DNA of 64,000 bases from positions 1 to 64,000 of the IMG/VR virus record IMGVR_UViG_3300025530_000001; one strand, 5' to 3'. The position numbers were made by a program, and so were the translations under genes. This document shows, one piece after another, positions 1,443 through 48,339 of the stretch. Source of the DNA: a virus. Within the stretch, counting starts at the first letter, position 1; every line of letters begins with the position of its first letter. Below the pieces are notes generated by a model. That model was not told the origin of the DNA. It worked only from the letters and a program-made list of their open reading frames with translations, and searched no databases.

Positions 1443-1971
1443 ATCCTTTCTCGTAATTCACAACACGAAGGAGGAGGTTGTGCTCCTTGGCGATATTGAT
1501 CATGTGCTGAGTACCTCTTGATTTGCCATCCCAAAAGCATACGCACGCACCGCCTGGGCCAGCTACCTCTGCCATTACGACATTCCGCCGATATCCAGCT
1601 GACTTGCCGTATCGATCCCAGTCAGCGGGACACTGATGGAGAAGAAACCCATGGTCCCTAGCATATTGTTCACCGAGCGAATCAGCTCCTCTGGCCATAC
1701 CAGAGATGATCACAACATGTTTTGGATCGATATTCTGCAGATAATAATCCATCCAACGGCAGAGCAGGGGATAATCCTGAAAATAACGTGTTCCAGCAAT
1801 GATCACTTTAAATGGAGTAGCAGAACCAATGTCACGAGTATCACAGATGCTTAGGGCGGATCCATCATGCTTATAAAAGAACCGAAGATCAGTTTCATCT
1901 TGACAGCTGGCTACAACCAATTCATTACTTGACGTATGATCCCTATATTGCACCAGTATCATGAAATGCAT
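1426..1971 (-). CDS. SLOG / DUF2493-like nucleotide-binding protein
   Basis: The C-terminal ~125 aa carry KVIIAGTR, ISGMARGADSLGEQYA, YGKSAGYRRN and CFWDGKSRGTQHMI. Start set at ATG 1969-1971 (AAGGA upstream). The start is uncertain because it overlaps a promoter palindrome. Confidence 0.7.
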   Translation of the reverse strand: MHFMILVQYRDHTSSNELVVASCQDETDLRFFYKHDGSALSICDTRDIGSATPFKVIIAGTRYFQDYPLLCRWMDYYLQNIDPKHVVIISGMARGADSLGEQYARDHGFLLHQCPADWDRYGKSAGYRRNVVMAEVAGPGGACVCFWDGKSRGTQHMINIAKEHNLLLRVVNYEKGCELPV

Positions 1972-1975
1972 TACA
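1962..1975. promoter_or_regulatory. palindromic operator/promoter motif copy 1 (TGAAATGCATTACA, 13/14)
   Basis: One mismatch to TGTAA-N4-TTACA. Minus-strand TATAAT at 1994-1999. Confidence 0.5.
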
Positions 1976-2161
1976 CCATCCTTTGATAAGCTTATTATAA
2001 TCAAAATGAGTGGATGGCGATAGCCCAAATAAGAAGAAAAAACATAAGGGAATATGCGAACAAAATGTTACAATAATGTGAACACGAAAAAAATATTTTT
2101 GAAAATCTATAAATTCCCTAGGTTTGTCGGTATATATTATATTATAGAGACACTAAAATCG

Positions 2162-2175
2162 TGTAACACATTACA
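2162..2175. promoter_or_regulatory. palindromic motif copy 2 (TGTAACACATTACA)
   Basis: Exact TGTAA-N4-TTACA in a 450-bp AT-rich intergenic region, with TATATT/TATTAT hexamers just upstream. Confidence 0.55.
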
Positions 2176-2379
2176 TCATGTAGTGTCATCAGAGACATGA
2201 TAATAAATACCAAATCTGTAAACGTAGCCGGTTCAAAAGTGGCCCCTCAGATCCAAGCAGATCTGAAATTTACAGGACCCTGAGAAAGCCACTCGTTGAA
2301 CTGATATCATCAAGTCCCTGATGAAAGTGCTCTATAATATAATCATCACTGGGGCGAGGTCTGTAAATGCAGACCTTTT
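2176..2379 (+). ncRNA. candidate small non-coding RNA antisense-oriented within the leftward gene block
   Basis: No ORF. Nested perfect stems: AGTGGC/GCCACT (2239-2294), TCAGATC/GATCTGA, TCATCA/TGATGA. Ends in a plus-strand terminator at 2357-2379. Confidence 0.25.
2357..2379 (+). terminator. rho-independent terminator (plus-strand orientation)
   Basis: AGGTCTG-taaatg-CAGACCT followed by TTTT. There is no U-run on the minus strand. Confidence 0.5.
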
Positions 2380-2478
2380 ACTAGGCATTGGTTGTTACGG
2401 CAGAATTATGGAACTTGAACGTTACGCATGAAAATTCATGTTCGTAATTTCTCAATACCCGAGGGGTACGTTTAAGTT

Positions 2479-2676
2479 TCACCGCCGCCAGCCTTCCAGG
2501 AATGCCGACTTGATAAAGATGAAAAGTACACGTGCAGCAATTCCAAGGCCAAATACAACCAGGCAAGCCACAACAAGACCAATCAAGAACTTAATAAGTG
2601 GCCATAGTATAACCAATGCTGTGCCAAGCAATACCACAGTGAAAAATCCTTTCGCTTGCTGGCGAAGTGTTCCCAT
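2479..2676 (-). CDS. small membrane protein (2 TM)
   Basis: Start moved to ATG 2674-2676 (GGAGG 7 nt upstream). Hydrophobic stretches FFTVVLLGTALVILWPLI and IGLVVACLVVFGLGIAA. Confidence 0.6.
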   Translation of the reverse strand: MGTLRQQAKGFFTVVLLGTALVILWPLIKFLIGLVVACLVVFGLGIAARVLFIFIKSAFLEGWRR

Positions 2677-2714
2677 GCAATAACCTCCGTTCACATAGAA
2701 TGGTTTAGACATGA

Positions 2715-3041
2715 TCAAGACGTTTTCGCCGTAGCCTCGTCATCAGTGAAGCCGTAAGGAAACTCTATAACAGAACTATCTTCATGCTTCAGATTGGGGT
2801 TTACCGCATTTGATATGTAACCTTTCTTGCGGAGCCAATTGACAGTTGCATCGAAATCCAGGATTTCAAACAACTTGGAGGTAAATTGAACTCCTCTCAC
2901 ATGGAGCCACGACCTACACTCCGGAGAATACCAGAACCCGGCTCGCTCAAGCAACAGGCGTTTGTAGAATATTTCACGGCGGGCTGCCGCATATTTTTGA
3001 ATCATGTGAATGGGCCAGCCCTTCATTGGACGTTTAGCCAT
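2715..3041 (-). CDS. hypothetical protein
   Basis: ORF with GAGGTG RBS upstream of ATG 3039-3041 (MAKRPMKG...). Confidence 0.6.
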   Translation of the reverse strand: MAKRPMKGWPIHMIQKYAAARREIFYKRLLLERAGFWYSPECRSWLHVRGVQFTSKLFEILDFDATVNWLRKKGYISNAVNPNLKHEDSSVIEFPYGFTDDEATAKTS

Positions 3042-3053
3042 CAAGTTCACCTC

Positions 3054-3314
3054 TTACACACGTTCTAGTTGATGAATTATACGATCATTGCTCCAGAACT
3101 TCTCTAGCTCGGGGAGGATTTCACGATACCATGTGCCACCAAAGCTAGTGTTCAAGCACATCGTACAGCAGTTGGGGCGCCGAGATGGATATAAAGTATA
3201 CCCAATCCCGGAACCCCACGGAAATTGATCCAGCCATGAATCAAAACGATCAAGCTCATCCTCAGTGACATTGATAATGATGACCTCATAACCTCTATAA
3301 GATTGAAAGGGCAT
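3054..3314 (-). CDS. hypothetical protein
   Basis: GGAGGTG RBS upstream of ATG 3312-3314 (MPFQSYRG...). Confidence 0.6.
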   Translation of the reverse strand: MPFQSYRGYEVIIINVTEDELDRFDSWLDQFPWGSGIGYTLYPSRRPNCCTMCLNTSFGGTWYREILPELEKFWSNDRIIHQLERV

Positions 3315-3389
3315 GACGTACACCTCCTATTCCAGTATGAGTTAATAAAATCGTGATGGAAACACAAATCCTCACGATGAATAGTCAAT

Positions 3390-3403
3390 TGTAACGCATT
3401 ACA
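3390..3403. promoter_or_regulatory. palindromic motif copy 3 (TGTAACGCATTACA)
   Basis: Exact motif. Minus-strand TATAAT at 3405-3410, immediately upstream. About 75 nt upstream of the 3314 start. Confidence 0.6.
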
Positions 3404-3422
3404 CATTATAAACTTGTGGAAA

Positions 3423-3890
3423 TCAAACAACAAGAGCTTGCACTCGCTCAACAAGCAGGCTGCGATCTTTCACATAGGACATCCACTTGTCTTTAATGGA
3501 TGCAAGGGGGCCTTCGTCGATGATTTTCACGCCACTATCGGTGACTACATGCACGGCGAAAAAGCCTCTTCCAGCAGGCTGCATAAAGAATTTTTTGATG
3601 ATCGGCACAGCTGCAGGTTCCTTTGCAACTTCCAGAGCAAGGGAGGAAGCTGGATCTTCTGCAGATGCAATGAGATCGGCAAATGCTTTGGTTAAAGCTT
3701 TGGAAGGCGACTTGAGAACAACTCTCATGCCGTCCAGATCGTTGGAAACAACAGCATCACGCAAGGACAATATCGTATCTGCATATTGAATCTGAACTCC
3801 CGGCATCGAGAGGGGTATGACATCTTCTTTCTTGCCAATTACCACTTGCTTATTGGCATGATTCACGATAAATGCATAAACTTTCTTCAT
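3423..3890 (-). CDS. hypothetical protein
   Basis: AAAGGAG RBS upstream. Start taken as the second ATG (MKKVYAFIV...). Confidence 0.6.
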   Translation of the reverse strand: MKKVYAFIVNHANKQVVIGKKEDVIPLSMPGVQIQYADTILSLRDAVVSNDLDGMRVVLKSPSKALTKAFADLIASAEDPASSLALEVAKEPAAVPIIKKFFMQPAGRGFFAVHVVTDSGVKIIDEGPLASIKDKWMSYVKDRSLLVERVQALVV

Positions 3891-3916
3891 AAGCATAAAT
3901 CTCCTTTCGTATGAAT

Positions 3917-3959
3917 GAAAAAGCCAATGCTCCAACTGGCCGGAACATTGGCTTTTTTT
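3917..3959. terminator. bidirectional rho-independent terminator
   Basis: AAAAAGCCAATG...CATTGGCTTTTTTT: an 8-bp stem flanked by an A-run and a T-run. Confidence 0.65.
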
Positions 3960-4050
3960 GTGCTGTTTCGGATCCTGATAGATCCATCATCAGGCAGGCT
4001 CAATCATGACAGGTTCATGAAAGTATCTCCCGCGACAGCAAGCACCTGAA

Positions 4051-4260
4051 TTAGAGCCAGGTGCGTGGTGTATACAAATCATGTTCAAGTGCATGTTGCG
4101 CTTCATCTTCAGTTGCGAAATACTCCTGGGAAAGCCGCCGGCCGGGAAGCCAGCAACCAAAGAAGGCATCATACACTTGAGTGCCGATATAATAACCGGC
4201 AAAAGAATGAAGCACTTTAACCTCAGATTCTGTACCATCTGGAATTTGCGTTTTATCCAT
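4051..4260 (-). CDS. hypothetical small protein (YDAF...EDEA motif)
   Basis: 69 aa with GAGGTG RBS 5 nt upstream. Preferred over the overlapping 128-aa ORF, which lacks an RBS. Confidence 0.55.
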   Translation of the reverse strand: MDKTQIPDGTESEVKVLHSFAGYYIGTQVYDAFFGCWLPGRRLSQEYFATEDEAQHALEHDLYTPRTWL

Positions 4261-4372
4261 GTGAACACCTCATCTCGGGTATTGTTTTCATCATGAATGG
4301 CGCCGATAGGCGCTTTATCAATTTGATGCAAAATAAAAGCAAGTAGAGTATTACACAAACAGAAGAGAAGAA

Positions 4373-4630
4373 TCAACTTGCAACACCTTGTGTGACGGCT
4401 CGATAACGGTGATACCCGAAGGGTGTGATCCGGATAACGAACTGTTCCGTTTCAAGATCACGATTTTTAAAGTGATGCATGGTTACATAGCCTTTATTGA
4501 TCAGAAGTGTCAACGCCTGCTTGTCTTTGATCAAGTGATAGGGTGCATCGTTATAACCTCGAACACGTTTATTCCATCTCTTGATCTTCAAGATCTGTTC
4601 AAAACACGCCAAAGCACGTTGGTTGTCCAT
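4373..4630 (-). CDS. hypothetical protein
   Basis: GGAGGTG RBS 6 nt upstream of ATG 4628-4630 (MDNQRALACF...). Confidence 0.6.
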   Translation of the reverse strand: MDNQRALACFEQILKIKRWNKRVRGYNDAPYHLIKDKQALTLLINKGYVTMHHFKNRDLETEQFVIRITPFGYHRYRAVTQGVAS

Positions 4631-4668
4631 CAGCAACACCTCCAGCGAATAGAGTAGGGGGCGGGTAA

Positions 4669-4699
4669 TAAAAAAGGTGCTCCTAAACCTGGAGCACCC
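4669..4699 (-). terminator. rho-independent terminator
   Basis: Minus strand reads GGGTGCTCC-aggttta-GGAGCACC followed by TTTTTTATT. Overlaps the stop of the GNAT gene. Confidence 0.65.
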
Positions 4700-5060
4700 A
4701 ATCAAAGCAAAGATCATCATTCGGGTACCGAAGGGTAAATCCTTTCTTGATACAGAAGGATCTACACTCCTCAGTAAGCACAGATTCCATGCAAATTTCC
4801 GGAATCCGATTCATCCGACAATAGGATAAGCACCAATCTAAAATTGCTGAACCGATGCCTTTACGCATATGATGATAACCCACATCGATCCTGGCAATCG
4901 TCAAACGGTGGCCGGGGGTCACGCGGATATAAAGATCCAGATGATCATTATAGAACAGGCCACTATTTACAAGTCCAGGTGTGTAATGCACTTCTTCTCC
5001 ATAAAGTTTGGAGAGGAGCTCAACAAGCGGCACATACCAGTCTGCAGGGATCCGCATCAT
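4683..5060 (-). CDS. GNAT-family N-acetyltransferase
   Basis: HHMRKGIGSAILDW matches the acetyl-CoA motif A (R/Q-x-x-G-x-G/A). Start at ATG 5058-5060 with GAGGTG RBS. Alternative start at 5090. Confidence 0.65.
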   Translation of the reverse strand: MMRIPADWYVPLVELLSKLYGEEVHYTPGLVNSGLFYNDHLDLYIRVTPGHRLTIARIDVGYHHMRKGIGSAILDWCLSYCRMNRIPEICMESVLTEECRSFCIKKGFTLRYPNDDLCFDWVLQV

Positions 5061-5076
5061 CTCTATCACCTCGGCA

Positions 5077-5280
5077 TTAATCATTGCCATAGATGCTTTT
5101 GATCTCATCAATAGTGAAATCAGGCATCGGCTTTCCTTCATAGTGCTCCAGGGCCTTCCACCAATAGTAGACCCGCTTCCACCGGGGACGGGAATAGATC
5201 TCAGCAACAGAATACTCCTTGCCTTTCACTTCACGCAAGTATTTCTGTATAAGACTGATCATTTCCTCTTCAAACCCCAT
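5077..5280 (-). CDS. hypothetical protein
   Basis: 67 aa with AAGGATGG RBS region upstream. Confidence 0.55.
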   Translation of the reverse strand: MGFEEEMISLIQKYLREVKGKEYSVAEIYSRPRWKRVYYWWKALEHYEGKPMPDFTIDEIKSIYGND

Positions 5281-5396
5281 GGAGCACCATCCTTATGAAT
5301 AGTATAAACATGTGATAGGTGATCACCGACATGCACCTTTATTTCACAGATGGTTCTGGTATTGTGCATGTCGTAATAAGTTTCAACCAGTTCCAT
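5259..5396 (-). CDS. small hypothetical protein (45 aa)
   Basis: Below the ORF-track cutoff: MELVETYYDMHNTRTICEIKVHVGDHLSHVYTIHKDGAPWGLKRK. Its N-terminus MELVETYY parallels MELVSNYL of the upstream gene. The ATG lies 1 nt after that gene's TGA. Confidence 0.4.
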   Translation of the reverse strand: MELVETYYDMHNTRTICEIKVHVGDHLSHVYTIHKDGAPWGLKRK

Positions 5397-5397
5397 A

Positions 5398-5586
5398 TCA
5401 CTCAATTACCTCCATTACAATTCCGGATGTCGTTGTGCTCATCTTTATGTGTTCCTTGTAATACTTTCCACAACGAATACATCGATACACATCAACGTAG
5501 CGATTGTCACTGGTGAAGCAAGACCTTATATGCTCCCAATCATGACAACATTGGTTGTTATTGAGGTAGTTGGACACTAACTCCAT
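5398..5586 (-). CDS. small Cys-rich (zinc-ribbon-like) protein
   Basis: 62 aa with CC-H...C...CIRCG pattern. AAGGTGG RBS. Confidence 0.55.
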   Translation of the reverse strand: MELVSNYLNNNQCCHDWEHIRSCFTSDNRYVDVYRCIRCGKYYKEHIKMSTTTSGIVMEVIE

Positions 5587-5735
5587 GAAAAATTCACCAC
5601 CTTATGCATTTACCTCCATGATGCGAGAATAAATTCTAAGGGTGGGGTAGGGGAAAGGAAATTAAATAGAGCTCCCCATACACACCAGTATAGAGAGCTC
5701 CTAGATTATCTGCAAATAGTCGATTAAAGAAATCA

Positions 5736-6005
5736 TCATGAAGCCACTTCTACAGCAGCATTCACATATCTGAATGCCCAAAGAATAGCTTCATCTCTGG
5801 CCTGACCATACGGCTTCATATCATGATCCTTAACAATATGAATACTGAACCCGTCATACATATCATCAAGTGAAGGATACATGACATAATTGTCCCATGG
5901 ATCCACTGGATCTTCCTCTCGGGCGATATACACTTCACGATTCGGGCTCTCAACCTTCCAAAGCTTCTTGTTGATAATCGTGACAGTCGCAGTCAAGTTA
6001 TTCAT
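5736..6005 (-). CDS. hypothetical small protein (YDGF...RDEA motif)
   Basis: GGAGG RBS 7 nt upstream of ATG 6003-6005. Confidence 0.6.
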   Translation of the reverse strand: MNNLTATVTIINKKLWKVESPNREVYIAREEDPVDPWDNYVMYPSLDDMYDGFSIHIVKDHDMKPYGQARDEAILWAFRYVNAAVEVAS

Positions 6006-6051
6006 GTCACAACCTCCAGGTATAGTATTCAAAGAGTAGGAAAGGGAAGCG

Positions 6052-6090
6052 GGGGAATAAAATAAAGGCCCTATATCATTATAGAGCCCC
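6052..6090 (-). terminator. rho-independent terminator
   Basis: Minus strand reads GGCTCTATA-atga-TATAGGGCC (9 bp, 1 mismatch) followed by TTTATTTTATT. Confidence 0.55.
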
Positions 6091-6125
6091 TATACATATA
6101 TAGCATATAGATAAACAATATAATG

Positions 6126-6479
6126 CTATAACAAAATCTCCGACCACTTGTCAAAGTCTTGAGACATACACCATTCATATGCTTCTTCATAAGTATCAGC
6201 ATCATATAGCATATGAAACCCGTCATATATAGGGTGGAACACCAAGTATGCTTTCTTATCAGCATATACCCCATAATTATTCTCAGAGATCTCAAAGCCA
6301 TTCACATACCTGACACCAATCTCTTTCTCCTTGCGGATCCGATATTCGCAATCAGGTAAGTGTCCATCTATACGACCATTGATCTCCTGAACCGATCGTT
6401 TGCAATGTACACATCGATAATACGGATTGCTATCACCAATAGGCTCTACTACATAATCACTAAAGTGCGTCATGATCAT
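6126..6479 (-). CDS. hypothetical protein with CxxC...C zinc-ribbon-like N-terminus and YDGF...YEEA C-terminus
   Basis: 117 aa with AGGAG RBS upstream. Confidence 0.6.
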   Translation of the reverse strand: MIMTHFSDYVVEPIGDSNPYYRCVHCKRSVQEINGRIDGHLPDCEYRIRKEKEIGVRYVNGFEISENNYGVYADKKAYLVFHPIYDGFHMLYDADTYEEAYEWCMSQDFDKWSEILL

Positions 6480-6516
6480 TCACTCTCCTATGTGTTTATC
6501 ATATACCAAACCATGG

Positions 6517-6753
6517 TCAAACGCTCAATATCGACTGGTAATTTTCACCCCAGGTTGACCATGAAATCGGCACGATCTTTGCCAATTCCATGACATCATC
6601 AAGCGTTTGTGTGATGGAGGATTGCAGCTCGCACACCCGCAAGGAGCACTGGGCACAGCGTGCAACAAGTCTTGCCGATTTGCCCCAGGTTATATATAGG
6701 AGCGGATCAGCAAGGCTTGTTCGCATCGTATAGGGCGCAATAATGCTAGTCAT
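6517..6753 (-). CDS. hypothetical protein
   Basis: 78 aa. ATGA start/stop overlap with the upstream gene suggests translational coupling. Confidence 0.45.
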   Translation of the reverse strand: MTSIIAPYTMRTSLADPLLYITWGKSARLVARCAQCSLRVCELQSSITQTLDDVMELAKIVPISWSTWGENYQSILSV

Positions 6754-7082
6754 GAGCCCTGATCAACATGAATGAGCATGTCATGAAGATAAGCATGATA
6801 TACATCGAGCTGATCATCCGACATCTGCACATCATTTCTGACGAGCGCCATCCATGGATGAGTGATAAGCACATCCGTCAAATTGCTCTGCACAATCAGT
6901 CTGGCAATATGATCATCCTTCAGGATGATGTCGATGTAATCATCGCCGATATCCAGCTGATAGTTGCCGAGGATCTGGAACAATGCATGGGTGACTTCGC
7001 CGATATGAGATGTTGGCAAGCGAAATACCAGATACTGCGCTTCGTCATCAATGCGGAGCTCCATCACTTCGTGTTTGGCCAT
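6750..7082 (-). CDS. hypothetical acidic protein
   Basis: AAAGGAG RBS 10 nt upstream of ATG 7080-7082 (MAKHEVMELRIDDE...). The upstream part of the 218-aa track ORF looks non-coding. Confidence 0.6.
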   Translation of the reverse strand: MAKHEVMELRIDDEAQYLVFRLPTSHIGEVTHALFQILGNYQLDIGDDYIDIILKDDHIARLIVQSNLTDVLITHPWMALVRNDVQMSDDQLDVYHAYLHDMLIHVDQGS

Positions 7083-7229
7083 AGTTAAACGTCTCCTTTC
7101 ATTACAGGGAAAATGTTTGACTGAAGAAATCATCAAGGAAGGAATGAAGAGAGGATGAAATGAAGTGTTTTCAATCTGGTCGTGAAGCTTGCTTCGCAGC
7201 GACCTGGGGATGGAGAGGATCAGAAAAAA

Positions 7230-7483
7230 CATGCGGCCGGAAGAGTAAATGAACAGCCCCTGTCGCATGGTAGGTTTTTTGCATGTGTGCTCGCCTGACG
7301 CAAGCATCATCCGAATGGAATGTGGCGATAGCCACAAGACGGAGTGGTGCAAACCCCGCAGGGTGGTGGAGATAGCTGCATGATGCAGACCCGAAGGGTG
7401 CGCCACGCCGGATGATGGGAGAGGCGAAGATATGCAAACCCGAAGGGTTCCTGCCTTCTATTGAGCAGACCATGCATGTTGTG
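7230..7483 (-). ncRNA. candidate structured RNA / structured 3' UTR with three tandem hairpin repeats
   Basis: GC-rich and lacks any RBS-supported ORF. Three direct repeats, TGCA(A/G)ACCC-[GAAG/CGCA]-GGGT, at about 7347-7365, 7383-7400 and 7432-7449. Further hairpins GTGGC/GCCAC and GCTTGC/GCGAGC. Ends at CATGCG...CGCATG flanked by A6/T6 (7224-7280). Confidence 0.35.
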
Positions 7484-7909
7484 TTAATCTATGGTCTTGA
7501 GAGCTGCTTTATACATGTCCAAGCATTCATCGATCGTGGGGCGATCTACAAATTGGGCAATGTAATGAGCGGCTCTTTTTGCGTTCATGCCAATGAGATT
7601 AAAGCAAAGAACGCACACAGGCTGCTTGAACAACCCATGTGCGTTCCCATAGCGGATGCCGACTGTGATCTTGAATACTCCCCAGCAATCGACATTGCCG
7701 ATTACCTGAGTCAGATCCTTTCGATCCAGTGATAACGTGAGATCCACTGGAACATCGTCGATGAAGCAATCCGTGCCTTTAAATCTATCCTCGTCGTGAG
7801 TGGCATATCGGATCTTGACTATCTCTTCAAGACGATAGATCATCTCGTCTTCAAAGACAAAGCCAGATCTGCGATCCTTGTTGATGTTGTTGTATACAGC
7901 ATTAAACAT
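7484..7909 (-). CDS. hypothetical protein
   Basis: 141 aa with AAAGGAGGTG RBS 7 nt upstream. Confidence 0.7.
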   Translation of the reverse strand: MFNAVYNNINKDRRSGFVFEDEMIYRLEEIVKIRYATHDEDRFKGTDCFIDDVPVDLTLSLDRKDLTQVIGNVDCWGVFKITVGIRYGNAHGLFKQPVCVLCFNLIGMNAKRAAHYIAQFVDRPTIDECLDMYKAALKTID

Positions 7910-8513: not shown

Positions 8514-8587
8514 ACAATCACCTCATATCGATAGTGGTTTTGCATGGTCTGCCCAATACAAAGCAGGAACACCTTGGTGAATCACAA

Positions 8588-8623
8588 CCGTTGAATGATG
8601 AACTCTAATGAGGGGGCGAATGC
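8588..8623. repeat. left arm of long-range inverted repeat bracketing the RNAP gene
   Basis: CCGTTGAATGATGAACTCTAATGAGGGGGCGAATGC. 32 of 37 positions are complementary to 12476-12512. Confidence 0.8.
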
Positions 8624-8645
8624 CGCTCCCCGATTAGATGGCTAT

Positions 8646-12419: not shown

Positions 12420-12475
12420 AGTGAATATTCCTCCCTGATTATTGTTTGGTGTGTGATGAATAGTCAGGGAAGCAA

Positions 12476-12512
12476 GCACTCGCCCGCCTCATTAGAGCTC
12501 GCCATTCAACGG
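12476..12512. repeat. right arm of long-range inverted repeat bracketing the RNAP gene
   Basis: GCACTCGCCCGCCTCATTAGAGCTCGCCATTCAACGG. Lies 57 nt upstream of the RNAP start codon. Confidence 0.8.
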
Positions 12513-13390: not shown

Positions 13391-13498
13391 AGAAGATCTC
13401 TCCTTTGCCCTTTCGGGCTTGATAGTGTGACAGTTACGGCTTGTCAGGCCCCCAGGAGCTCCCCCTGAGTATTACACCGCCTATGGCTGCGGTAATCT

Positions 13499-13562: not shown

Positions 13563-13567
13563 GAAAG

Positions 13568-14020: not shown

Positions 14021-14050
14021 AGTGAATTGCTCCTTTCGATTTATTGTTTT

Positions 14051-14117: not shown

Positions 14118-14123
14118 GCCAAG

Positions 14124-14339: not shown

Positions 14340-14353
14340 ACGAATCATCCTCC

Positions 14354-14629
14354 TTAGTTATTGATTGCTACTGGGATCTCAATGACAGTGCCAGCCATGA
14401 TGGATGCTCCACCAATACGTTGGGAAGCCATACGGACCAGAAGACGAACATCTCCTTCATAATCAGGATTGTAACGCCTTACAAGTGACCACAGTGTGTC
14501 ACCGGGCTCCACCACCACTGCTTCATAGGTGTATTGCACTGAGTTATCATTCGCCCCCAAGAGACATCCGGACGACAAAGCAACAACACCTGCGACAATT
14601 GCGGCAACAGCAAAACGACGGATCTTCAT
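14354..14629 (-). CDS. LysM-domain lipoprotein
   Basis: 91 aa from ATG 14627-14629 (AAAGGAG RBS). Signal peptide with lipobox LSSGC. LysM-like VVEPGDTLWSLVRRYN...IMAGTVIEIP. Confidence 0.7.
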   Translation of the reverse strand: MKIRRFAVAAIVAGVVALSSGCLLGANDNSVQYTYEAVVVEPGDTLWSLVRRYNPDYEGDVRLLVRMASQRIGGASIMAGTVIEIPVAINN

Positions 14630-15307: not shown

Positions 15308-15344
15308 TTGCCCAAAATAAGAAATAGATTATATAATGGTATTG

Positions 15345-15358
15345 TGTAATGCGTTACA
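15345..15358. promoter_or_regulatory. palindromic motif copy 4 (TGTAATGCGTTACA)
   Basis: Exact motif. TATAAT at 15332-15337, 7 nt upstream. Confidence 0.65.
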
Positions 15359-18078: not shown

Positions 18079-18092
18079 TGTAATGCATTACA
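18079..18092. promoter_or_regulatory. palindromic motif copy 5 (TGTAATGCATTACA)
   Basis: Exact motif occupying the -35 region of TATAAT 18101-18106, upstream of tRNA-Ser. Confidence 0.65.
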
Positions 18093-18210
18093 ATATATTA
18101 TATAATGGTTGTGGCGAGTCATGTTCTTCTCCTTTCTTTCGGAGAGTTCCTGGCATTTGTGCCCTTGTGTGGATTGGATCACCGATCGATGCAGGGGCAC
18201 TTGTTCGTAA

Positions 18211-18299
18211 GGATGGATACCGAAGTGGTCATAACGGGGCGGTCTTGAAAACCGTTAGGGTGCAAGCCCACGGGGGTTCGAATCCCTCTCCATCCGCCA
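18211..18299 (+). tRNA. trnS(UGA): tRNA-Ser (anticodon UGA), type II with long variable arm, CCA encoded
   Basis: Acceptor GGATGGA/TCCATCC. Anticodon stem GCGGT/ACCGT with loop CTTGAAA. Variable arm GGGTGCAAGCCC. T-arm GGGGG-TTCGAAT-CCCTC. Discriminator G plus CCA. Confidence 0.85.
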
Positions 18300-18438: not shown

Positions 18439-18467
18439 TTGATTAAAACGGTGTAATGCATTACAAT
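18439..18467 (+). promoter_or_regulatory. sigma-A-type promoter (TTGATT-17-TACAAT)
   Basis: -35 at 18439-18444 and -10 at 18462-18467. The spacer and -10 overlap palindrome copy 6. Confidence 0.6.
18452..18465. promoter_or_regulatory. palindromic motif copy 6 (TGTAATGCATTACA)
   Basis: Exact motif overlapping the -10 TACAAT. Confidence 0.65.
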
Positions 18468-25745: not shown

Positions 25746-25759
25746 TGTAATGCAATACA
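25746..25759. promoter_or_regulatory. palindromic motif copy 7 (TGTAATGCAATACA, 13/14)
   Basis: Occupies the -35 region of TATAAT 25769-25774, upstream of the portal gene. Confidence 0.55.
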
Positions 25760-25840
25760 AGCATCATGTATAATTGGTAATGATATAAAATGCAAAAAAT
25801 TAACCTTGCATTCCATTCGGAGCCGGGGAGGTGTGAGTTC

Positions 25841-28087
25841 TTGGCGAAACTATTCTATCAAGTCATGGCACGAATGGGACTCAAGAACGCACCATCGACC
25901 AGCTCGGGGGGTTCAAACAGCAAGGGCTCATCAAGTGGGATTGGATCCTTTACCCGCGATCCAAAGACCACCCAGGTCAGACGGATAGGCTATCAATTAA
26001 GCAGTTCCAGAGGCGGCGGGCGAGATGAATTCGAAGAATCGAAGGTAGACTTAAGCCTGATTGCGACAGCCATTGAAAAAGATTCTTATTTGATGCAAGC
26101 TGTCATGCGTTACAGAGAGCTCATTTTCAAGTCCGGATATGCGTTTGTAGGCAAGAATGAGCAATCGCTGGAGTACATCAGGATGCGGCTTGAAATGATG
26201 GCGATCGCAACACAAACACCGACTGAAGAACTGTTTAAGGGTATCGCCGATGATGTGGTCAGGTATGCTAATTGTTTTCTAGTCAAGGCAAGAGGCAAAT
26301 CCGGGCAGGGTCTAGCACCAGGTGTGGTGGCCAATCCGATGCCGCCGGCCAAATATCCGGTGGTTGGCTATTTTCGGTTGCCGCCGCAAACCATGTCCAT
26401 TCAGAGAGATGCGAACGGTAATATCACAAAGTATAGGCAGGAAGTAGAAGGCGGCGGAGACGCCTTGGAGTTCAGACCGGAAGACATTGTTCACATTACA
26501 GTGAATCGTCCTGTTGGAGAGGCATTCGGTATTCCGTGGATATCGCCTGTCATTGAAGACGTTCGACTCCTCCGGAAGGTAGAGGAAAACGCGGCACTTC
26601 TGTTGTATCGCCACATCTTCCCGCTCCTTGCTTACACCGTAGGTATTGCGGAGCCTGGATATGAATCCACGGATGAAGAAATCGCCAACCTCCAGTCGGT
26701 TATCGAGGATATGCCAACAGATGGCGCCATTGTTCTCCCTGAGCGCCACAAGATCCAAGCAGTCAATATTCAGACAATGGATGTCAGGCCGCTGATGGAT
26801 TACTTTGAGAACCGGGTGTTCACGGGAATGGGTATGTCCCAGGTAGATATGGGACGTGGCGATACTGCAAACAGAAATACCGCAGATGCCATGAGCGGAA
26901 TGAAAGCGGATCGCGTTAAAGGATGGCAACAACAGATTCAAGTGCAGATTGACAAGTTCATGATCGAAGAGATTCTCGTTGAGGGCGGATTCGATCCAAT
27001 GGTGAATCCCGATTTTGATGTCAACTTCATCTTTAACGAGATCGAACAAGAGATGCGGATCAAACAAGAGACGCATGAAATCTACAAATTTGAACACAAT
27101 CTGCAAACCTGGGAAGAAACTCGTAAGGCAATGGGAATGGATCCGGTGGTGGATGAATCCCGATTGTCCTACCAGATGATCGGCGCTTCGAAGACAGGAT
27201 CGTCTGCTGAGACGGATAATAAACAACAGCCGACCAATCAACATGGCACCAGGTCCGGGCCTAAGCGAAGTACGGAATACGTGAATGCGGAGGAATACTT
27301 CATGGATAAGTTTCCGGCAACAGGCTATTTCCGATACAAGGGGCCACTTGTCAAGAAGGCTACACGAAGTCCTGAGCCAGTTCAAGAATCCGTATCTGCC
27401 CGATATCCGAAGGATAAGATCGATGAATTGAGAGCCAGTGTTGATGCCATTTATACAGGCATCGAAGAAGATATATTGGGCGAAATCAGGCGATTGAAAG
27501 AGCGCAAGGCTTTTCCAATTACAGATATCAAATCAACCTTATCCTCGATATATTTCGGCAAAGAGAAGATGCTGCAACAAGTATTAAAAGCATCCAACGA
27601 TGCCATTCTGACCGGAGCTAAAGAAGCAATGAAGGATGCAGGTAGATCCAGACTGGTTGCAGTGAATACGAGCGCTGCGAGGCAGATGATTGCAGACTCT
27701 GCTACCCAGTCGTTTGATTACACCGAAAAGCTAATTTCCGACATACTTTCAGAAAAGCTCGATGGATTGGACAATCCATCAGAGGCAATGCTCCGTGTAA
27801 GAGGCGTTTTCCAGTCTCTAAAGCATCGCAATTCAGTAATTTGCCGATCAATGATTGCCAAAGCATTTAACTATGGTTATGTACTGGCCATGATTCGATA
27901 CGGAGAATCCGAGGTTTATACCGATTATGACGGTGCTTGTCCAACATGCCTGGAAAAATCACAGGAGCCAATCAAACTGAGTCGTCTTTCATCCATGGAT
28001 GAGATGACCATATATGAACATATTCCACCGTGGCATCCGAACTGCGATTGCTCACTGGTACTTGGCAAGGGAGGTGAATCGAAATGA
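25841..28087 (+). CDS. portal protein fused to a Mu F / SPP1 gp7-like minor head protein domain
   Basis: Position next to TerL and upstream of protease and MCP. Start moved to TTG 25841 (GGGGAGGTG 7 nt upstream) because track ATG 25790 lies only 16 nt from the -10. C-terminal ...YTDYDGACPTCLE...IPPWHPNCDCSL is the MuF-family signature. Confidence 0.7.
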   Translation: MAKLFYQVMARMGLKNAPSTSSGGSNSKGSSSGIGSFTRDPKTTQVRRIGYQLSSSRGGGRDEFEESKVDLSLIATAIEKDSYLMQAVMRYRELIFKSGYAFVGKNEQSLEYIRMRLEMMAIATQTPTEELFKGIADDVVRYANCFLVKARGKSGQGLAPGVVANPMPPAKYPVVGYFRLPPQTMSIQRDANGNITKYRQEVEGGGDALEFRPEDIVHITVNRPVGEAFGIPWISPVIEDVRLLRKVEENAALLLYRHIFPLLAYTVGIAEPGYESTDEEIANLQSVIEDMPTDGAIVLPERHKIQAVNIQTMDVRPLMDYFENRVFTGMGMSQVDMGRGDTANRNTADAMSGMKADRVKGWQQQIQVQIDKFMIEEILVEGGFDPMVNPDFDVNFIFNEIEQEMRIKQETHEIYKFEHNLQTWEETRKAMGMDPVVDESRLSYQMIGASKTGSSAETDNKQQPTNQHGTRSGPKRSTEYVNAEEYFMDKFPATGYFRYKGPLVKKATRSPEPVQESVSARYPKDKIDELRASVDAIYTGIEEDILGEIRRLKERKAFPITDIKSTLSSIYFGKEKMLQQVLKASNDAILTGAKEAMKDAGRSRLVAVNTSAARQMIADSATQSFDYTEKLISDILSEKLDGLDNPSEAMLRVRGVFQSLKHRNSVICRSMIAKAFNYGYVLAMIRYGESEVYTDYDGACPTCLEKSQEPIKLSRLSSMDEMTIYEHIPPWHPNCDCSLVLGKGGESK

Positions 28088-46207: not shown

Positions 46208-46240
46208 TGTTATACATCAAAATAAAGGAGTGAAACACTC

Positions 46241-46969
46241 ATGACATTCGATCTTGAGCAATATACTCGCACGTTCAGCTCGTTCTCCGGAGCGGATATC
46301 GTGGCGACATTCAATGGCAGGATCATCGGCGAGCTGCAAGGCATTACGTATTCCATTGCTCGTGAAGTTGCTCCGGTATATACAATGGGATCCCCGGACC
46401 CTCGGTCTTTCAGCCGTGGCAAGCGGGGGATCTCCGGTAGCCTGATCTTCACACAATTCGATCGTGATGCGCTCCTCGAAGAAATGAAGAAGAGCTACAA
46501 TGGTGCGCCTGAGCTGATGACCTTCCAGCAATATCAATGGAACGTTGGCTCTAAAGAGAACCAAATCCTCAGCGGCTTGCAAGCCGCCAAGACCGGCGGC
46601 TATGGTATTGAAACCTGGGACGAGCAAATGACCAGGCTTGGTTACGGCGCCGTATCGGCTTCGAATGGGTTCAATGCAGACGCATTGACTGGATTCTATG
46701 TTCCGGAGTATGCTGACCAACTGATGCCATTCAACATCTCGATTACGATGGCGAACGAATTTGGCCAACGTGCCGGTATGGATATCTACGGCGTTCAAAT
46801 CCTGAACGAGGGATCAGGCTTTACCATCGATGATGTTGTGGCTTCCAAAGCCTACACATTCGTCGCTCGCAAGATCAAGGGTGTTGAGCGCAAAGCAAAT
46901 CTTCGCACGAGCGGCCAAAGCAGCGCCAACGCAGCAAGCGGAGATTCGTTCCAAGTGCTCTACGCCTAA
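46241..46969 (+). CDS. tail tube protein (tube-family paralog 1)
   Basis: 242 aa with AAAGGAG RBS. FSGADIVATFNGRIIGELQGITYS motif is shared with the next two genes. Confidence 0.65.
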   Translation: MTFDLEQYTRTFSSFSGADIVATFNGRIIGELQGITYSIAREVAPVYTMGSPDPRSFSRGKRGISGSLIFTQFDRDALLEEMKKSYNGAPELMTFQQYQWNVGSKENQILSGLQAAKTGGYGIETWDEQMTRLGYGAVSASNGFNADALTGFYVPEYADQLMPFNISITMANEFGQRAGMDIYGVQILNEGSGFTIDDVVASKAYTFVARKIKGVERKANLRTSGQSSANAASGDSFQVLYA

Positions 46970-46982
46970 TGAGATCTGGCAG

Positions 46983-47011
46983 AAAAGGCAGCTCACAAGG
47001 CTGCCTTTTTT
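46983..47011 (+). terminator. rho-independent terminator
   Basis: AAAAGGCAGC-tcacaag-GCTGCCTTTTTT. Confidence 0.7.
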
Positions 47012-47033
47012 ACATAAGAGAGGAGGAAGGCTT

Positions 47034-47525
47034 ATGGTTTATCAGAATCCGACTGATCCTGGCTATCATCATACATTTACCACATATTCAGGAGCCGATA
47101 TGGTTGCAACAATCAATGTTCCTGGAAAGGGTCCTGTTGTGTTTGGCAGCTTGTCTTCGATTGCCTACTCCATTTACCGTGCCAAATATCCCGTTCTTAC
47201 GCTTGGTCGTATCACACCGAAGGGATTCACCAGAGGGATTCGGCAAATTACCGGGGTCATGAGATTCATCGATTTTGATGAAACGATCGTTTATCGCTGT
47301 CTTGAAGAGATCAAGAACATGGGATACAAGATGCTCATGGATGAAATGCCAATGTTTGATGTCACCATCAGCATGGCCAATGAATTTGGCTCAAAAAGCA
47401 AAATCACCATCTATGGCATCACCACCTACACAGAAGGCAAAACCATGGATATCAATGAAGTGCGAACTGAAAATGTTTATGAGTTCTATGCGCTTGATGT
47501 CGATCCACTAACCAAGGCAAAGTGA
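47034..47525 (+). CDS. tube-family paralog 2
   Basis: 163 aa from ATG 47034 (GAGGAGGAAGG RBS). YSGADMVATINVPGKG motif. Confidence 0.6.
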   Translation: MVYQNPTDPGYHHTFTTYSGADMVATINVPGKGPVVFGSLSSIAYSIYRAKYPVLTLGRITPKGFTRGIRQITGVMRFIDFDETIVYRCLEEIKNMGYKMLMDEMPMFDVTISMANEFGSKSKITIYGITTYTEGKTMDINEVRTENVYEFYALDVDPLTKAK

Positions 47526-47535
47526 GGGGAAACAT

Positions 47536-48318
47536 ATGGCCTACAATCCGTATCGCATACGGCAGCCGGCACCGGTGGGAAACGTTTATCAACGCCCGAC
47601 TAATCGAGTGGAATATCAAATCTTCAGTGAAGATTACTTCTCGGGAGCTGACGTAAACATCTTCTTCGGAAATATTTGGGTGGATGAAGCACACGAATTG
47701 AGCTTTCAAATTGAAGAGCGCATTATGCCGATTTATGGATATAATTCATTCACATTTGATGCAGTTGCTCGGGGAAACCGGCTTGTACAAGGATACTTCA
47801 AGATTAATTTCAAATCGGTCGGTTATCTGAAGACCATTCTTGAAAATGCTATGGCTATTGAATACACCATTTTGAAGGCGCAGAGCGAAGGAAAACTGTC
47901 TCCGGCAGATTTCAATAAATATAAGCTTGAAGACATCTTGCAAATCGCAGGTAAATCAGGATTTGACCAAATCGCAGATGAATATGAAAAAGCTCTTTGG
48001 GGTGTAGAAGAAGACGCAAATTCCATTCTTTCATATGGGACCAGCACTTTCTTTCCATCCAGCCAATATGGGTTTGATATCAAGATCAACTATGGGGCGG
48101 TTTCTGAGGCCATGTCAACTTCACAGCGATATATCACAGCAAGCAAATACAATCAAAAGCCGAACCTGACAGTAGAGACAATCAATGGTGTTCAGCTATT
48201 TGGTATGAAAAAAGATGGCATTGCGACAGGAGAAGACGGAAGGCCGATCACAGAAACCTATAGCTTTATCGCCCGAGATATAAATGGGCCTTTATATATT
48301 CAGCAAAACCGTATATAA
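47536..48318 (+). CDS. tube-family paralog 3 (tube initiator/baseplate-tube candidate)
   Basis: 260 aa with GAGGGG RBS. FSGADVNIFFGNIWVDE motif. Confidence 0.6.
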   Translation: MAYNPYRIRQPAPVGNVYQRPTNRVEYQIFSEDYFSGADVNIFFGNIWVDEAHELSFQIEERIMPIYGYNSFTFDAVARGNRLVQGYFKINFKSVGYLKTILENAMAIEYTILKAQSEGKLSPADFNKYKLEDILQIAGKSGFDQIADEYEKALWGVEEDANSILSYGTSTFFPSSQYGFDIKINYGAVSEAMSTSQRYITASKYNQKPNLTVETINGVQLFGMKKDGIATGEDGRPITETYSFIARDINGPLYIQQNRI

Positions 48319-48325
48319 TTAACTG

Positions 48326-48339
48326 TGTAATGCATTACA
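48326..48339. promoter_or_regulatory. palindromic motif copy 8 (TGTAATGCATTACA)
   Basis: Exact motif, 6 nt downstream of TATAAT 48314-48319 and 15 nt upstream of ATG 48354. Confidence 0.65.

Follow-up and report, generated by a model that had tools for sequence, protein, structure and literature searches.

The 14-bp palindrome TGTAATGCATTACA is probably the operator of one dimeric repressor, which is encoded by a phage-plasmid and would silence a genome-wide regulon. It was analysed in a 64,000-nt stretch of DNA (the window), part of a ~197-kb temperate-type jumbo phage-plasmid of Bacillus type. A first-pass annotation had proposed a dimeric phage regulator that would control, among others, the tRNA, a short transcript and the portal and chaperone/tape-measure operons; this is the best-supported reading, and it is strengthened by finding the palindrome exactly conserved at orthologous promoters of diverged relatives. 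The control is most likely of an ordinary kind, by dispersed phage operators, while the example itself is undescribed.

Occurrence, anatomy and conservation of the palindrome

As shown in Table 1, the degenerate pattern TGTAANNNNTTACA (TGTAA-N4-TTACA) was found seven times in the window (at 2162, 3390, 14470, 15345, 18079, 18452 and 48326), compared with 0.05 on average, and never more than 1, in 100 dinucleotide shuffles. Allowing up to 2 mismatches to TGTAATGCATTACA added 1962 (TGAAATGCATTACA), 25746 (TGTAATGCAATACA) and 26101 (TGTCATGCGTTACA), and these 10 sites compare with 0.19 expected. The eight copies listed earlier were real, with correct coordinates, and all lie between genes or across a gene start; the list had missed two intragenic copies (14470 and 26101), and among its six "exact" copies only 18079, 18452 and 48326 match the full 14-mer, while 2162, 3390 and 15345 are exact for the degenerate pattern only. 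Non-coding DNA makes up 9.3% of the window but holds 8/10 copies (P = 2e-7 for at least 8/10), and the most frequent 10-mer of the window is the palindrome.

Table 1. Palindrome copies, -10 boxes and adjoining genes in the window
Feature	Position	Strand	Context
Palindrome, 1 mismatch (TGTAATGCATTTCA on minus strand)	1962..1975	-	Overlaps start codon of YAcAr/DUF2493 (SLOG) gene 1426-1962
-10 TATAAT	1994..1999	-	18 nt upstream of palindrome 1962
Palindrome TGTAACACATTACA, half-sites intact	2162..2175	.	In 884-bp stretch without convincing ORF
Palindrome (TGTAATGCGTTACA on minus strand)	3390..3403	-	1 nt downstream of TATAAT; downstream gene 3054-3323
-10 TATAAT of 3390 promoter	3405..3410	-	
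Palindrome TGTAACGCCTTACA, weak/uncertain	14470..14483	-	Within LysM lipoprotein gene, 121 nt upstream of ORF 14124-14348; no good -10
-10 TATAAT	15332..15337	+	After terminator-like hairpin; 7 nt upstream of palindrome 15345
Palindrome TGTAATGCGTTACA	15345..15358	+	~+1 to +14 of promoter for ORF 15379-15669
Palindrome, exact	18079..18092	+	-35/spacer region of tRNA promoter (PAL-N8-TATAAT)
-10 TATAAT of tRNA promoter	18101..18106	+	
tRNA-Ser(UGA)	18211..18299	+	Downstream target of 18079 promoter
Palindrome, exact	18452..18465	+	Right half + AT = TACAAT -10-like box (18462-18467)
Palindrome TGTAATGCAATACA	25746..25759	+	Covers -35 to -22 of portal promoter
TG-extended -10 (catgTATAAT) of portal promoter	25769..25774	+	9 nt from palindrome 25746
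Portal gene	25790..28087	+	phrog_9232 match, 1e-67; first in head operon downstream of 25746 promoter
2-mismatch copy, broken half-site (TGTCA)	26101..26114	.	Inside portal gene; probably due to chance (0.19 expected per window at up to 2 mismatches)
-10 TATAAT	48314..48319	+	6 nt upstream of palindrome 48326
Palindrome, exact	48326..48339	+	~+1 to +14; RBS AGGGAGG directly behind; tail-chaperone start 48351

The half-sites were spaced by N4 only (window, 7 copies; P. rhizovicinus plasmid, 12), and a search of the same two sequences for spacings of N0-3 and N5-9 found none. Among 67 unique sites, single mismatches fell mostly at symmetric positions 1, 3 and 6, with hardly any at the central pair and none at positions 2 and 4, and the flanks were unconserved. 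Orphan half-sites were few, most of them in coding sequence. This spacing and the symmetric mismatch pattern suggested the anatomy of a dimer-type site, in which the two 5-bp half-sites (TGTAA and TTACA) with their fixed 4-bp spacer would be bound by one dimeric protein.

The relatives, 200-260 kb in size, are plasmids of Bacillus, Paenibacillus and Virgibacillus. Throughout the clade the 14-mer stays identical although protein identity is 35-90%, and it was found at orthologous promoters (portal, tRNA array, tail chaperone, upstream of parM, YAcAr) of genomes whose portal proteins are 52-68% identical and whose RNA polymerases are 33-40% identical. The complete P. rhizovicinus plasmid carries 33 copies within 2 mismatches; at no more than 1 mismatch, 16/17 copies are intergenic or start-proximal in a genome that is ~8.5% intergenic, and the top intergenic-enriched 8-mers, poly(A) runs aside, derive from the palindrome. 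Individual copies could be paired as well. The counterpart of 1962 lies at P. rhizovicinus 114314, in front of a DUF2493 gene, and that of 15345 at 97082 (L074 12505); 18452 corresponds to sites in L002 (2261) and L074 (8322, P. rhizovicinus 92899), and 48326 to L030 3143 and to P. rhizovicinus 62776, where the next gene carries the annotation 'tail chaperonin'. The 18079 arrangement recurs upstream of the tRNA arrays in L001, L002, L100, B. licheniformis pSCDB14 and P. rhizovicinus, and PAL-N9-TATAAT is kept at the portal promoter in L001, L002, L033, L083 and L074.

For genomes scored as lacking the motif, 21-100 kb of each was scanned. No copy of TGTAATGCATTACA was found in 100 kb of phage 0305phi8-36. 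Since the palindrome is present in B. cereus pG9842_140 and none was found in the 41 kb examined of a B. thuringiensis pBtic235-type plasmid, the motif appears to follow the element and not the host.

Placement at promoters and the predicted regulon

The palindrome lies anywhere from the -35 region to ~+25, beside a sigma-A-type -10 box. A perfect TATAAT within 20 nt was found at 28 of the 47 family sites, compared with 3.3% of other intergenic positions. The offsets run from PAL-N4..N9-(-10) through (-10)-N0..N18-PAL, and the RBS and ATG often follow immediately. Both architectures described earlier were confirmed: some copies occupy the -35/spacer region and others come shortly after the -10. 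A -10-like hexamer does lie near each of the eight listed copies, the nearest ranging from overlapping (18452) to 18 nt away (1962). Such consensus -10 boxes suit repressed promoters rather than activator-dependent ones, and the variable position combined with N4-only spacing would fit a dimeric-repressor operator better than a polymerase element.

The surroundings of single copies differ. The direction of 2162 is ambiguous: the plus strand has TAAAAT 2 nt upstream of it, and the minus strand has TATAAT at distances of 15 and 20 nt. Copy 18079 has further -10-like boxes at 4 and 1 nt besides the TATAAT at 8 nt. Copy 18452 has a LexA-box promoter upstream and, downstream, a short low-coding transcript, a terminator-like hairpin and then a ParM-like gene. 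The tail-chaperone gene behind 48326 is followed by genes for tail proteins of 1993 and 2345 aa.

Because each copy overlaps a promoter, occupancy by the dimer would obstruct host RNA polymerase at these sigma-A-type promoters with a strong -10, which is why we read the regulator as a repressor. Its regulon would include the tRNA array, the portal and head genes, the tail chaperone and tape-measure genes, the short transcript beside parM and a number of small genes, and in relatives it would extend to the lysis, nrd and dnaE operons. The regulon may be silent as a whole, most plausibly in the plasmid-prophage state, and then be released as a whole.

Candidate binding proteins

The most likely binder is a 170-205-aa winged-helix/coiled-coil protein, whose gene (P0047) lies in the window's own genome, ~25 kb left of the window. 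Its SEATVHRA recognition helix was invariant or nearly so in 38 homologs with a mean column identity of 31%, and the structure model showed a winged helix and a 73-residue helix. In PLSDB, the gene was found in exactly ten plasmids, among them 8/8 with a capsid protein 83-89% identical to that of the window, and the motif was present in all three of the ten that were scanned (P. rhizovicinus, pSCDB14 and pG9842_140). Locus L136 lacks the palindrome, and there the helix is altered to SSATVFRA. Degenerate palindromes lie just upstream of the candidate gene in five genomes and overlap its -10 in two, and a -10 inside a degenerate palindrome would point to negative autoregulation. The gene is located in a RecA-UDG early-type cluster rather than a classic divergent immunity module. 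A distant homolog in 0305phi8-36 carries the similar helix SNATVHRA, yet the 100 kb examined of that genome contained no palindrome.

The neighbouring gene encodes a small MerR-like protein. Both genes are clade-specific, lie outside the window and have matching distributions, and both are altered in parallel where the motif is missing; the MerR-like protein is a candidate alternative binder or partner. The binders suggested in the first-pass annotation (14124-14339, 7902-8513 and 4373-4630) fared poorly: the motif-bearing P. rhizovicinus plasmid encodes no homolog of any of them, and none has a Pfam DNA-binding hit. In the family of the 14124 ORF, the presumed recognition-helix segment is not conserved.

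PadR/LmrR structures were among the nearest folds to the candidate's winged helix, although the Foldseek E-value was ~0.01 and many other winged-helix families scored equally. PadR-family operators have the form ATGT-N8-ACAT, and the TGT-N8-ACA spacing matches the palindrome. Unlike in PadR operators, the flanking A and T are not conserved here, and a long coiled coil is not a PadR feature.

Alternative explanations and known systems

It is possible, though unlikely, that the same phage dimer is a dual regulator, which would repress at or downstream of the -10 and activate from the -35/spacer region (portal, tRNA) in the style of T4 MotA or MerR, as a temporal switch. The two position classes of the palindrome agree with this, and a MerR- or MotA-style activator is conceivable at copies in the -35/spacer of extended -10 promoters: the portal promoter has no -35 match and keeps N9 strictly in six genomes, and at the copy before parM the inferred start follows the palindrome centre by ~23 bp, a MerR-like geometry. 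However, promoters of the -35/spacer class (class A) have a consensus TG-extended -10 and should need no activator, their spacing differs (4, 7-9 nt) in a way not expected of a single fixed activating geometry, and the strict N9 may reflect shared ancestry only.

Rather doubtful is a role as promoter or specificity element of the phage single-subunit two-barrel (YonO/RdRP-like) RNA polymerase, direct or via a phage specificity factor; the adjacent TATAAT boxes would then be melting regions or independent host promoters. The window does encode such a protein (ORF 8646-12479, minus strand, 1277 aa, Pfam RdRP PF05183 hit), the palindrome stands in front of many operons, late ones included, and the promoters of YonO-like polymerases have not been described. 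A precedent exists in the related phage 0305phi8-36, whose repeated 21-bp motif was proposed as the target of its homologous polymerase (Hardies et al. 2007); we located there a palindromic hairpin adjoining a -10-like box, probably this motif. Nevertheless, an element with perfect symmetry has no means of orienting transcription, its placement against the -10, RBS and start codon shifts in distance and order by >40 bp, and its sequence is unchanged between motif-bearing genomes whose polymerases share only 33-40% identity. Moreover, the palindrome was not found in the parts examined of polymerase-encoding pBtic235-type plasmids (41 kb) and 0305phi8-36 (100 kb), and its core hairpin is unstable (-0.5 kcal/mol). 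The polymerase alternative offered in the first-pass annotation is disfavoured on these grounds of symmetry, variable placement and invariance.

We consider it very doubtful that the palindrome is the site of a conserved host (Bacillales) global regulator exploited by the phage-plasmids. All hosts are Bacillales, and the phage clearly uses host LexA, since a Cheo box lies at 18404-18415. The palindrome also resembles the CcpA cre box (TGTAAGCGCTTACA), the TnrA box (TGTNA-N7-TNACA) and the Zur box. Its central dinucleotide is GC, however, not the cre-defining CG, its spacing is unlike TnrA and Zur sites, and the motif tracks element clade rather than host group. About 33 copies per genome, as the most enriched intergenic words (poly(A) aside), would be unusual for a borrowed host site, and the palindrome co-varies with two phage-encoded candidate DNA-binding proteins. 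Finally, action in RNA, as an mRNA-stabilising 5' hairpin or RNase processing site, is scarcely credible: the inferred start falls at the first palindrome bases in several promoters, which would make the palindrome the mRNA 5' end, and a few copies have stem-extending flanks (15345, -6.8 kcal/mol; 18079, -6.2 kcal/mol), but the core hairpin reaches -0.5 kcal/mol, flank complementarity is not systematic, there is no covariation because the palindrome itself is invariant, and many copies lie upstream of the -10, thus outside the transcript from that promoter.

The proposed operator of a phage-encoded repressor has a close parallel in B. subtilis prophage SPbeta, which encodes a YonO-type RNA polymerase and carries SPBRE, a 15-bp element in about ten promoter regions; ChAP-seq and EMSA showed SPBRE to be the operator of the lysogeny-maintaining master repressor MrpR (YopR) (PMC10516654). 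Both are short conserved elements repeated at promoters of a large Bacillus element with a YonO-type polymerase. They differ in that the element here is a 14-bp perfect palindrome, the candidates predicted here are a winged-helix/coiled-coil or small MerR-like protein whereas MrpR has a tyrosine-recombinase fold, and SPbeta integrates into the chromosome whereas the element here is a plasmid.

Phage P1, in a Gram-negative host, is a plasmid prophage with a single C1 repressor, >12 dispersed promoter-overlapping operators and antirepressor control. The life style and the dispersed promoter-overlapping sites are alike, but C1 binds as a monomer to 17-bp operators, which are asymmetric, unlike the 14-mer. 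Mycobacteriophage L5 has ~30 intergenic copies of a 13-bp site, all bound by the repressor gp71; these operators and 'stoperators' are asymmetric and orientation-dependent, and many lie downstream of promoters and stop elongation, whereas the copies here have symmetry and keep close to -10 boxes. The 21-bp motif of 0305phi8-36, from a related lineage, is likewise a repeated palindrome that directly adjoins a -10-like box and RBS in numerous intergenic spaces (Hardies et al. 2007), but its sequence differs (N4-CGTTCGCACG-N4') and its outer stem covaries, pointing to a selected hairpin structure.

Copies of the palindrome and their placement

A scan of the window with the pattern TGTAANNNNTTACA gave seven copies of the palindrome TGTAA-N4-TTACA (2162, 3390, 14470, 15345, 18079, 18452 and 48326), compared with a mean of 0.05 in dinucleotide-preserving shuffles. 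When up to two mismatches from the full form TGTAATGCATTACA were allowed, ten sites were found in 64 kb against 0.19 expected, the additional ones lying at 1962, 25746 and 26101, and the most frequent 10-mer of the window was derived from the palindrome. The motif scan recovered all eight coordinates reported by the first-pass annotation, which had overlooked the two intragenic copies at 14470 and 26101. Eight of the ten copies fell in non-coding DNA, a fraction that makes up 9.3% of the window (P = 2e-7).

Across 67 unique sites, the conserved unit was just the 14 bp with flanks that were only AT-rich, and single mismatches mostly affected symmetric positions 1, 3 and 6 and almost never the central pair. 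The half-sites were separated by N4 exclusively, orphan half-sites stayed at background level, and the central tetranucleotide varied in more degenerate copies (TGCA, CGCA, TGCG, CACA). Of 47 sites, 28 had a perfect TATAAT no more than 20 nt away, compared with 3.3% of other intergenic positions. Two classes of arrangement were seen. In class 1 the -10 box sits 4-9 nt 3' of the palindrome, which thus lies over the -35/spacer region, and in class 2 it sits 0-18 nt 5' of the palindrome, which then covers the start site and is often followed immediately by an RBS and ATG. Relative to inferred start sites, palindrome positions ranged from the -35 region to about +25.

Features of the window and of related genomes (window positions unless another record is named)
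Feature	Position	Strand	Remarks
Leftward block	1-14746		small genes and the 1277-aa polymerase protein
Accessory genes	16475-16894, 110-559, 563-1003, 1426-1962		Tad2-like (anti-Thoeris) domain, HAD_SAK_2 RNA-repair-type HAD domain, RNase H, YAcAr/DUF2493 SLOG, in this order
YonO-type single-subunit two-barrel RNA polymerase	8646-12479	minus	1277 aa; Pfam RdRP match (PF05183)
Palindrome copy	14470		intragenic, within LysM lipoprotein gene
Palindrome copy	26101		intragenic, portal gene; broken half-site; probably chance
Rightward block	14937-62688		tRNA-Ser, ParM-like partition gene, large terminase, portal, protease-like, major capsid, very large tail proteins
LexA (Cheo) box GAACATATGTTC	18404-18415		only GAAC-N4-GTTC in the window
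Actin-like ParM/StbA partition ATPase	18695-19900
Small conserved ORF after ParM	19851-20099		55-82 aa in five genomes
CC(T)ATATAGG motif	14747-14936 (copies 14796, 14868); 6033-6125
CC(T)ATATAGG motif, relatives	B. licheniformis L130 7881; pBtic235-type L138 6553; L100 near 5119
196-aa MerR-like gene	L124 (extends the window leftward) 11705-12295	minus	region with 12296-12620 about 1.2-2.2 kb past the window's left end
agrB/agrD and winged-helix/coiled-coil regulator entry	NZ_CP048288.1 133872-134524 and 130704-131321
Degenerate palindromes, window genome			TGTAATACATTAAT and TATAATGTATTACA; TATAAT within the second
Degenerate palindromes, P. rhizovicinus			TGTAATACATTAGG and TATAGTGTATTACA
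Degenerate palindrome, pSCDB14			TGTAATGCATTACG
Degenerate palindrome, pG9842_140			TGTAGTACATTACA
Degenerate palindrome, Virgibacillus contig			TGTAATGTATTATA

The palindrome across a jumbo phage-plasmid family

The gene map, built from codon usage, resolved the window into two blocks, and its wider genome was a ~197-kb metagenomic contig (ENA ERZ795070 NODE_52). A near-identity search found no close DNA match among deposited phage records, and the terminase was closest to those of Moorella phage MTATph1 and 0305phi8-36-type Bacillus jumbo phages. Neither the portal protein nor a capsid profile gave a match when scanned against species-representative genomes; hosts came via PLSDB, where the capsid protein was 83-89% identical to proteins of 200-260-kb plasmids of Paenibacillus rhizovicinus, P. 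urinalis, Bacillus licheniformis, B. paralicheniformis, B. halotolerans and B. thuringiensis. Identity to the capsid of the pBtic235 group was 47%, and pBtic235 is a proven mitomycin-inducible plasmid prophage (PMC8026635; PMC9700832). Because capsid relatives lie on plasmids and pBtic235 is a proven plasmid prophage, the window is part of a jumbo phage-plasmid. From the PLSDB relatives, the ParM gene, the LexA box and the inducibility of pBtic235, we infer a temperate plasmid lifestyle, which is also supported by the ParM/StbA gene together with the small ORF behind it, which could encode a ParR-like adaptor.

An exact 14-mer scan of IMG/VR returned mostly lone chance matches, and about ten large contigs with several matches each, which were relatives of the window. 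The portal promoter was retained as PAL-N9-TATAAT (PAL, the palindrome), usually TG-extended, in six genomes despite diverged surrounding DNA, and the promoter of the tRNA arrays, which hold 1 to 10 tRNAs, as PAL-N7/8-TATAAT, also in six genomes. Palindromes were likewise matched at orthologous positions at the tail-chaperone, YAcAr and ORF-15379 promoters and upstream of parM. The complete P. rhizovicinus plasmid carried 33 copies with up to two mismatches, compared with roughly 0.7 expected when the shuffle figure of the window was scaled. At up to one mismatch, 16 of its 17 copies were intergenic or start-proximal in a genome that is about 8.5% intergenic, and palindrome-derived words topped its intergenic-enriched 8-mers after poly(A) runs. 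Further genes preceded by the palindrome in this plasmid were the endolysin gene, nrdIEF, an exonuclease-RemA-dnaE operon and a radical-SAM gene.

Further carriers of the palindrome were B. licheniformis pSCDB14, B. cereus pG9842_140 and a Virgibacillus contig. It was not found in 41 kb of a pBtic235-type plasmid, 100 kb of 0305phi8-36, 21 kb of MTATph1 or 20 kb of L136, a distant locus whose sole degenerate-pattern match was a coding copy with three mismatches. With one 14-bp word marking the controlled promoters, regulons can be predicted in any family member, and a regulatory code open to testing is at hand for these little-studied ~200-kb phage-plasmids, which range over Bacillus licheniformis, B. 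halotolerans, the B. cereus group, Paenibacillus and Virgibacillus.

A proposed operator and its competing readings

Judged by its architecture, the palindrome is probably an operator that represses. The symmetric 5-4-5 site, its fixed internal spacing and its variable placement over strong -10 promoters point to the operator of a dimeric repressor, and a dimer bound at any observed position would fall inside the footprint of host RNA polymerase, so that the polymerase would be excluded. Since tRNAs and genes for head, tail, lysis and replication all fall within the regulon, the regulator may be a master silencer acting in the plasmid-prophage state. A strong -10 box with such a portable 14-bp operator would also make a compact switch for Bacillus genetics.

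A possible release from silencing is hinted at by the LexA box, which lies directly 3' of a sigma-A-like promoter (TTGAAA-N17-TAAAAT) and about 40 nt before the palindrome at 18452. GAAC-N4-GTTC boxes were also found 5' of the orthologous palindromes in two related loci (L002 and L074), and pBtic235 has one LexA operator adjoining an antirepressor gene (PMC9700832). Taken together with the pBtic235 parallel, the box may allow an SOS trigger to release the silenced regulon. The short transcript after the box may be SOS-inducible, as a small RNA, a peptide or an antirepressor; an Rfam search matched tRNA only. Large elements could thus be silenced as plasmids and released, possibly via the LexA-controlled promoter beside one site.

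The palindromes would form a set of dispersed operators of a phage master regulator, and P1 C1 operators and L5 stoperators act in like manner. The closest described system was the SPBRE/MrpR operator set of SPbeta (PMC10516654). As expected of dispersed operators, one short sequence occurs at many promoters far above chance and overlaps core promoter elements, as placed from predicted start sites. MrpR has a tyrosine-recombinase-like fold, and there was no integrase-type Pfam match among the 44 window proteins scanned. A literature string search found no paper containing the 14-mer, and the set would be an undescribed example, with new candidate regulators, in an understudied jumbo phage-plasmid clade. 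Other known elements differed from it. A sigma-70-type -35 box is asymmetric and lies at a fixed 16-18-bp spacing upstream of the -10, whereas the palindrome is symmetric and lies on either side of the -10. MerR-type activators bind a dyad in the 19-20-bp spacer between -35 and -10, whereas the palindrome has no consistent -35; most copies lie outside a spacer, and only the copy upstream of parM has a roughly MerR-like geometry.

For the portal and tRNA promoters, where the palindrome stands 5' of TATAAT, a regulator with dual repressor and activator action is the alternative, and an unlikely one. It is improbable that the palindrome is read by the phage YonO-type RNA polymerase as a promoter element. 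The palindrome is symmetric and variably placed, it is invariant although the polymerase is just 33-40% identical to its homologs in related phage-plasmids, and scans of 41 kb and 100 kb of polymerase-encoding relatives gave no copy. The idea keeps its attraction only because promoters of YonO-type polymerases are still undefined and 0305phi8-36 has its own palindromic motif adjoining -10-like boxes. In a related and quite improbable version, the palindrome and a winged-helix/coiled-coil partner would form the promoter-recognition module of this polymerase rather than a repressor system, a dimeric factor on TGTAATGCATTACA beside an AT-rich melting box recruiting the polymerase; if true, the two-barrel polymerase class would gain a defined promoter and a specificity factor for the first time. 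Under the repressor reading, the host-dependent-looking promoters with -10 box and operator can be set apart from possible YonO-like polymerase promoters, which narrows the search.

There is little probability that a host regulator binds the site, since the palindrome tracks the element and not the host group, and its centre is wrong for CcpA: the cre site is TGWAANCGNTNWCA with a central CG step, whereas the palindrome has a TGCA centre with a G-C step at positions 7-8, and its central G was 99% conserved over 67 sites. Action as an RNA hairpin is the least credible reading, with many copies 5' of the -10 and a core stem (-0.5 kcal/mol as RNA, -1.1 kcal/mol as DNA) that is too weak and not systematically extended by the flanks; hairpin promoters of the N4 vRNAP type, to which the 0305phi8-36 motif possibly belongs, differ likewise in their stable stem, with selected pairing, and in their fixed position relative to the start site.

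Candidate binding proteins and accompanying motifs

Among 44 window ORFs (left arm, switch region and a few others), no HTH family was matched in Pfam. The three binders proposed in the first-pass annotation (14124-14339, 7902-8513 and 4373-4630) did not hold up, with no homologs in the palindrome-bearing P. rhizovicinus plasmid. In the window and three related loci, ORF 14124-14348 or its homolog lies 120-220 nt from a palindrome, and a homolog is also present in pSCDB14; an indexed protein search returned the ORF itself alone. It was rejected as a universal binder, being missing from the motif-bearing P. rhizovicinus plasmid and having an unconserved presumed recognition helix.

A better candidate came from pSCDB14, in which a one-mismatch palindrome lies 29 nt 5' of a 173-aa 'winged helix-turn-helix' gene. 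In PLSDB, members of its family are encoded by exactly ten plasmids, among them all eight with 83-89% capsid identity to the window, and the palindrome was present in the three of these ten that were scanned (P. rhizovicinus, pSCDB14 and pG9842_140). In the window's genome the member is P0047, encoded about 25 kb left of the window after RecA, UDG, a 76-aa MerR-like protein and a small MpsC-like ORF. Its P. rhizovicinus ortholog is annotated as 'iron-containing alcohol dehydrogenase' (NZ_CP048288.1), which looks like a misannotation. This plasmid also has agrB/agrD quorum-sensing genes.

In the AlphaFold model (pLDDT 84.8) the protein has a winged helix, a helix of 73 residues and a small beta domain. 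Among 38 homologs, whose mean column identity was 31%, the SEATVHRA helix and parts of the wing were invariant or nearly so. The closest solved folds were generic winged-helix regulators (PadR/LmrR, MarR, Fur and CodY). PadR-fold dimers bind an ATGT-N8-ACAT dyad; the TGT-N8-ACA spacing of the palindrome fits, whereas the outer A and T are unconserved, and the PadR match of the candidate fold was no better than MarR, Fur or CodY. Degenerate palindromes just 5' of the winged-helix gene in five genomes, which in the window's genome extend over its own -10, suggest that it may be negatively autoregulated.

The neighbouring MerR-like gene had the same distribution, and in the motif-less L136 the DNA-reading parts of both proteins were altered, so the two cannot be separated as binders. 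Two DNA-binding genes restricted to the clade share the distribution of the palindrome and vary along with it, which points to two small candidate regulators. Because the helix is almost invariant, only L136 is informative for helix-motif covariation across the winged-helix family, and loss of both there was the sole signal. A distant homolog, ORF230 of 0305phi8-36, has the helix SNATVHRA, yet no palindrome was found in the 100 kb scanned. On present comparisons, the winged-helix/coiled-coil protein is a tentative choice as palindrome binder, with the odds slightly against it.

Other candidates were set aside. The 126-aa HTH protein of P. rhizovicinus, PadR-like at first, proved to be a homolog of the replication terminator RTP with no palindrome nearby, and it also occurs in pBtic235-type plasmids without a palindrome in the 41 kb scanned. 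A RemA-like protein is conserved within a palindrome-controlled operon, which makes it a target and no obvious dyad binder. The divergent 196-aa MerR-like gene left of the window is preceded by a different, TATGTCATAT-type repeat and no palindrome. Its product has a coiled coil, and the gene is the early arm's only divergently oriented one. The 325-bp region fronting it (L124 12296-12620) holds dense C(C/G)CTATGTCATAT-type repeats, iterons or operators, and the arrangement is retained in P. rhizovicinus (116643-117658).

Several further motifs were seen. At 40183 an orphan half-site GCATTACA lies immediately 3' of a terminator-like hairpin GGCCCCTCGTTTATGAGGGGC and is kept at the orthologous position in P. 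rhizovicinus (70900); L136, without full palindromes, has the same hairpin with GCATTACATAT ahead of its radical-SAM gene. Next to the polymerase gene, the strand-switch region has a second palindromic motif, CC(T)ATATAGG, which adjoins A/T tracts of the AAAATTTTT type. This motif is kept even in pBtic235-type plasmids, where the main palindrome was not found in 41 kb, and could act as an origin or as a promoter, either early or specific to the polymerase. Leftward genes are separated in places by non-coding DNA of high GC content (12480-12838, 13391-13567 and 14021-14123), which gave no Rfam match; two of the three stretches share the repeat CCCACTCTGCGTTTAC..GGGCTTGTGACC, and all may be structured leaders or RNAs. 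In 0305phi8-36 (L121/L122; e.g. L122 14701, 31418 and 39536), a hairpin N4-CGTTCGCACG-N4' is repeated; read in gene sense, boxes resembling TTATGTA(T/A)AA follow it at 1-5 nt, together with an RBS. Hardies et al. 2007 probably described this hairpin as their '21-bp promoter motif', and the covariation of its outer stem suggests that structure is selected beyond sequence alone.
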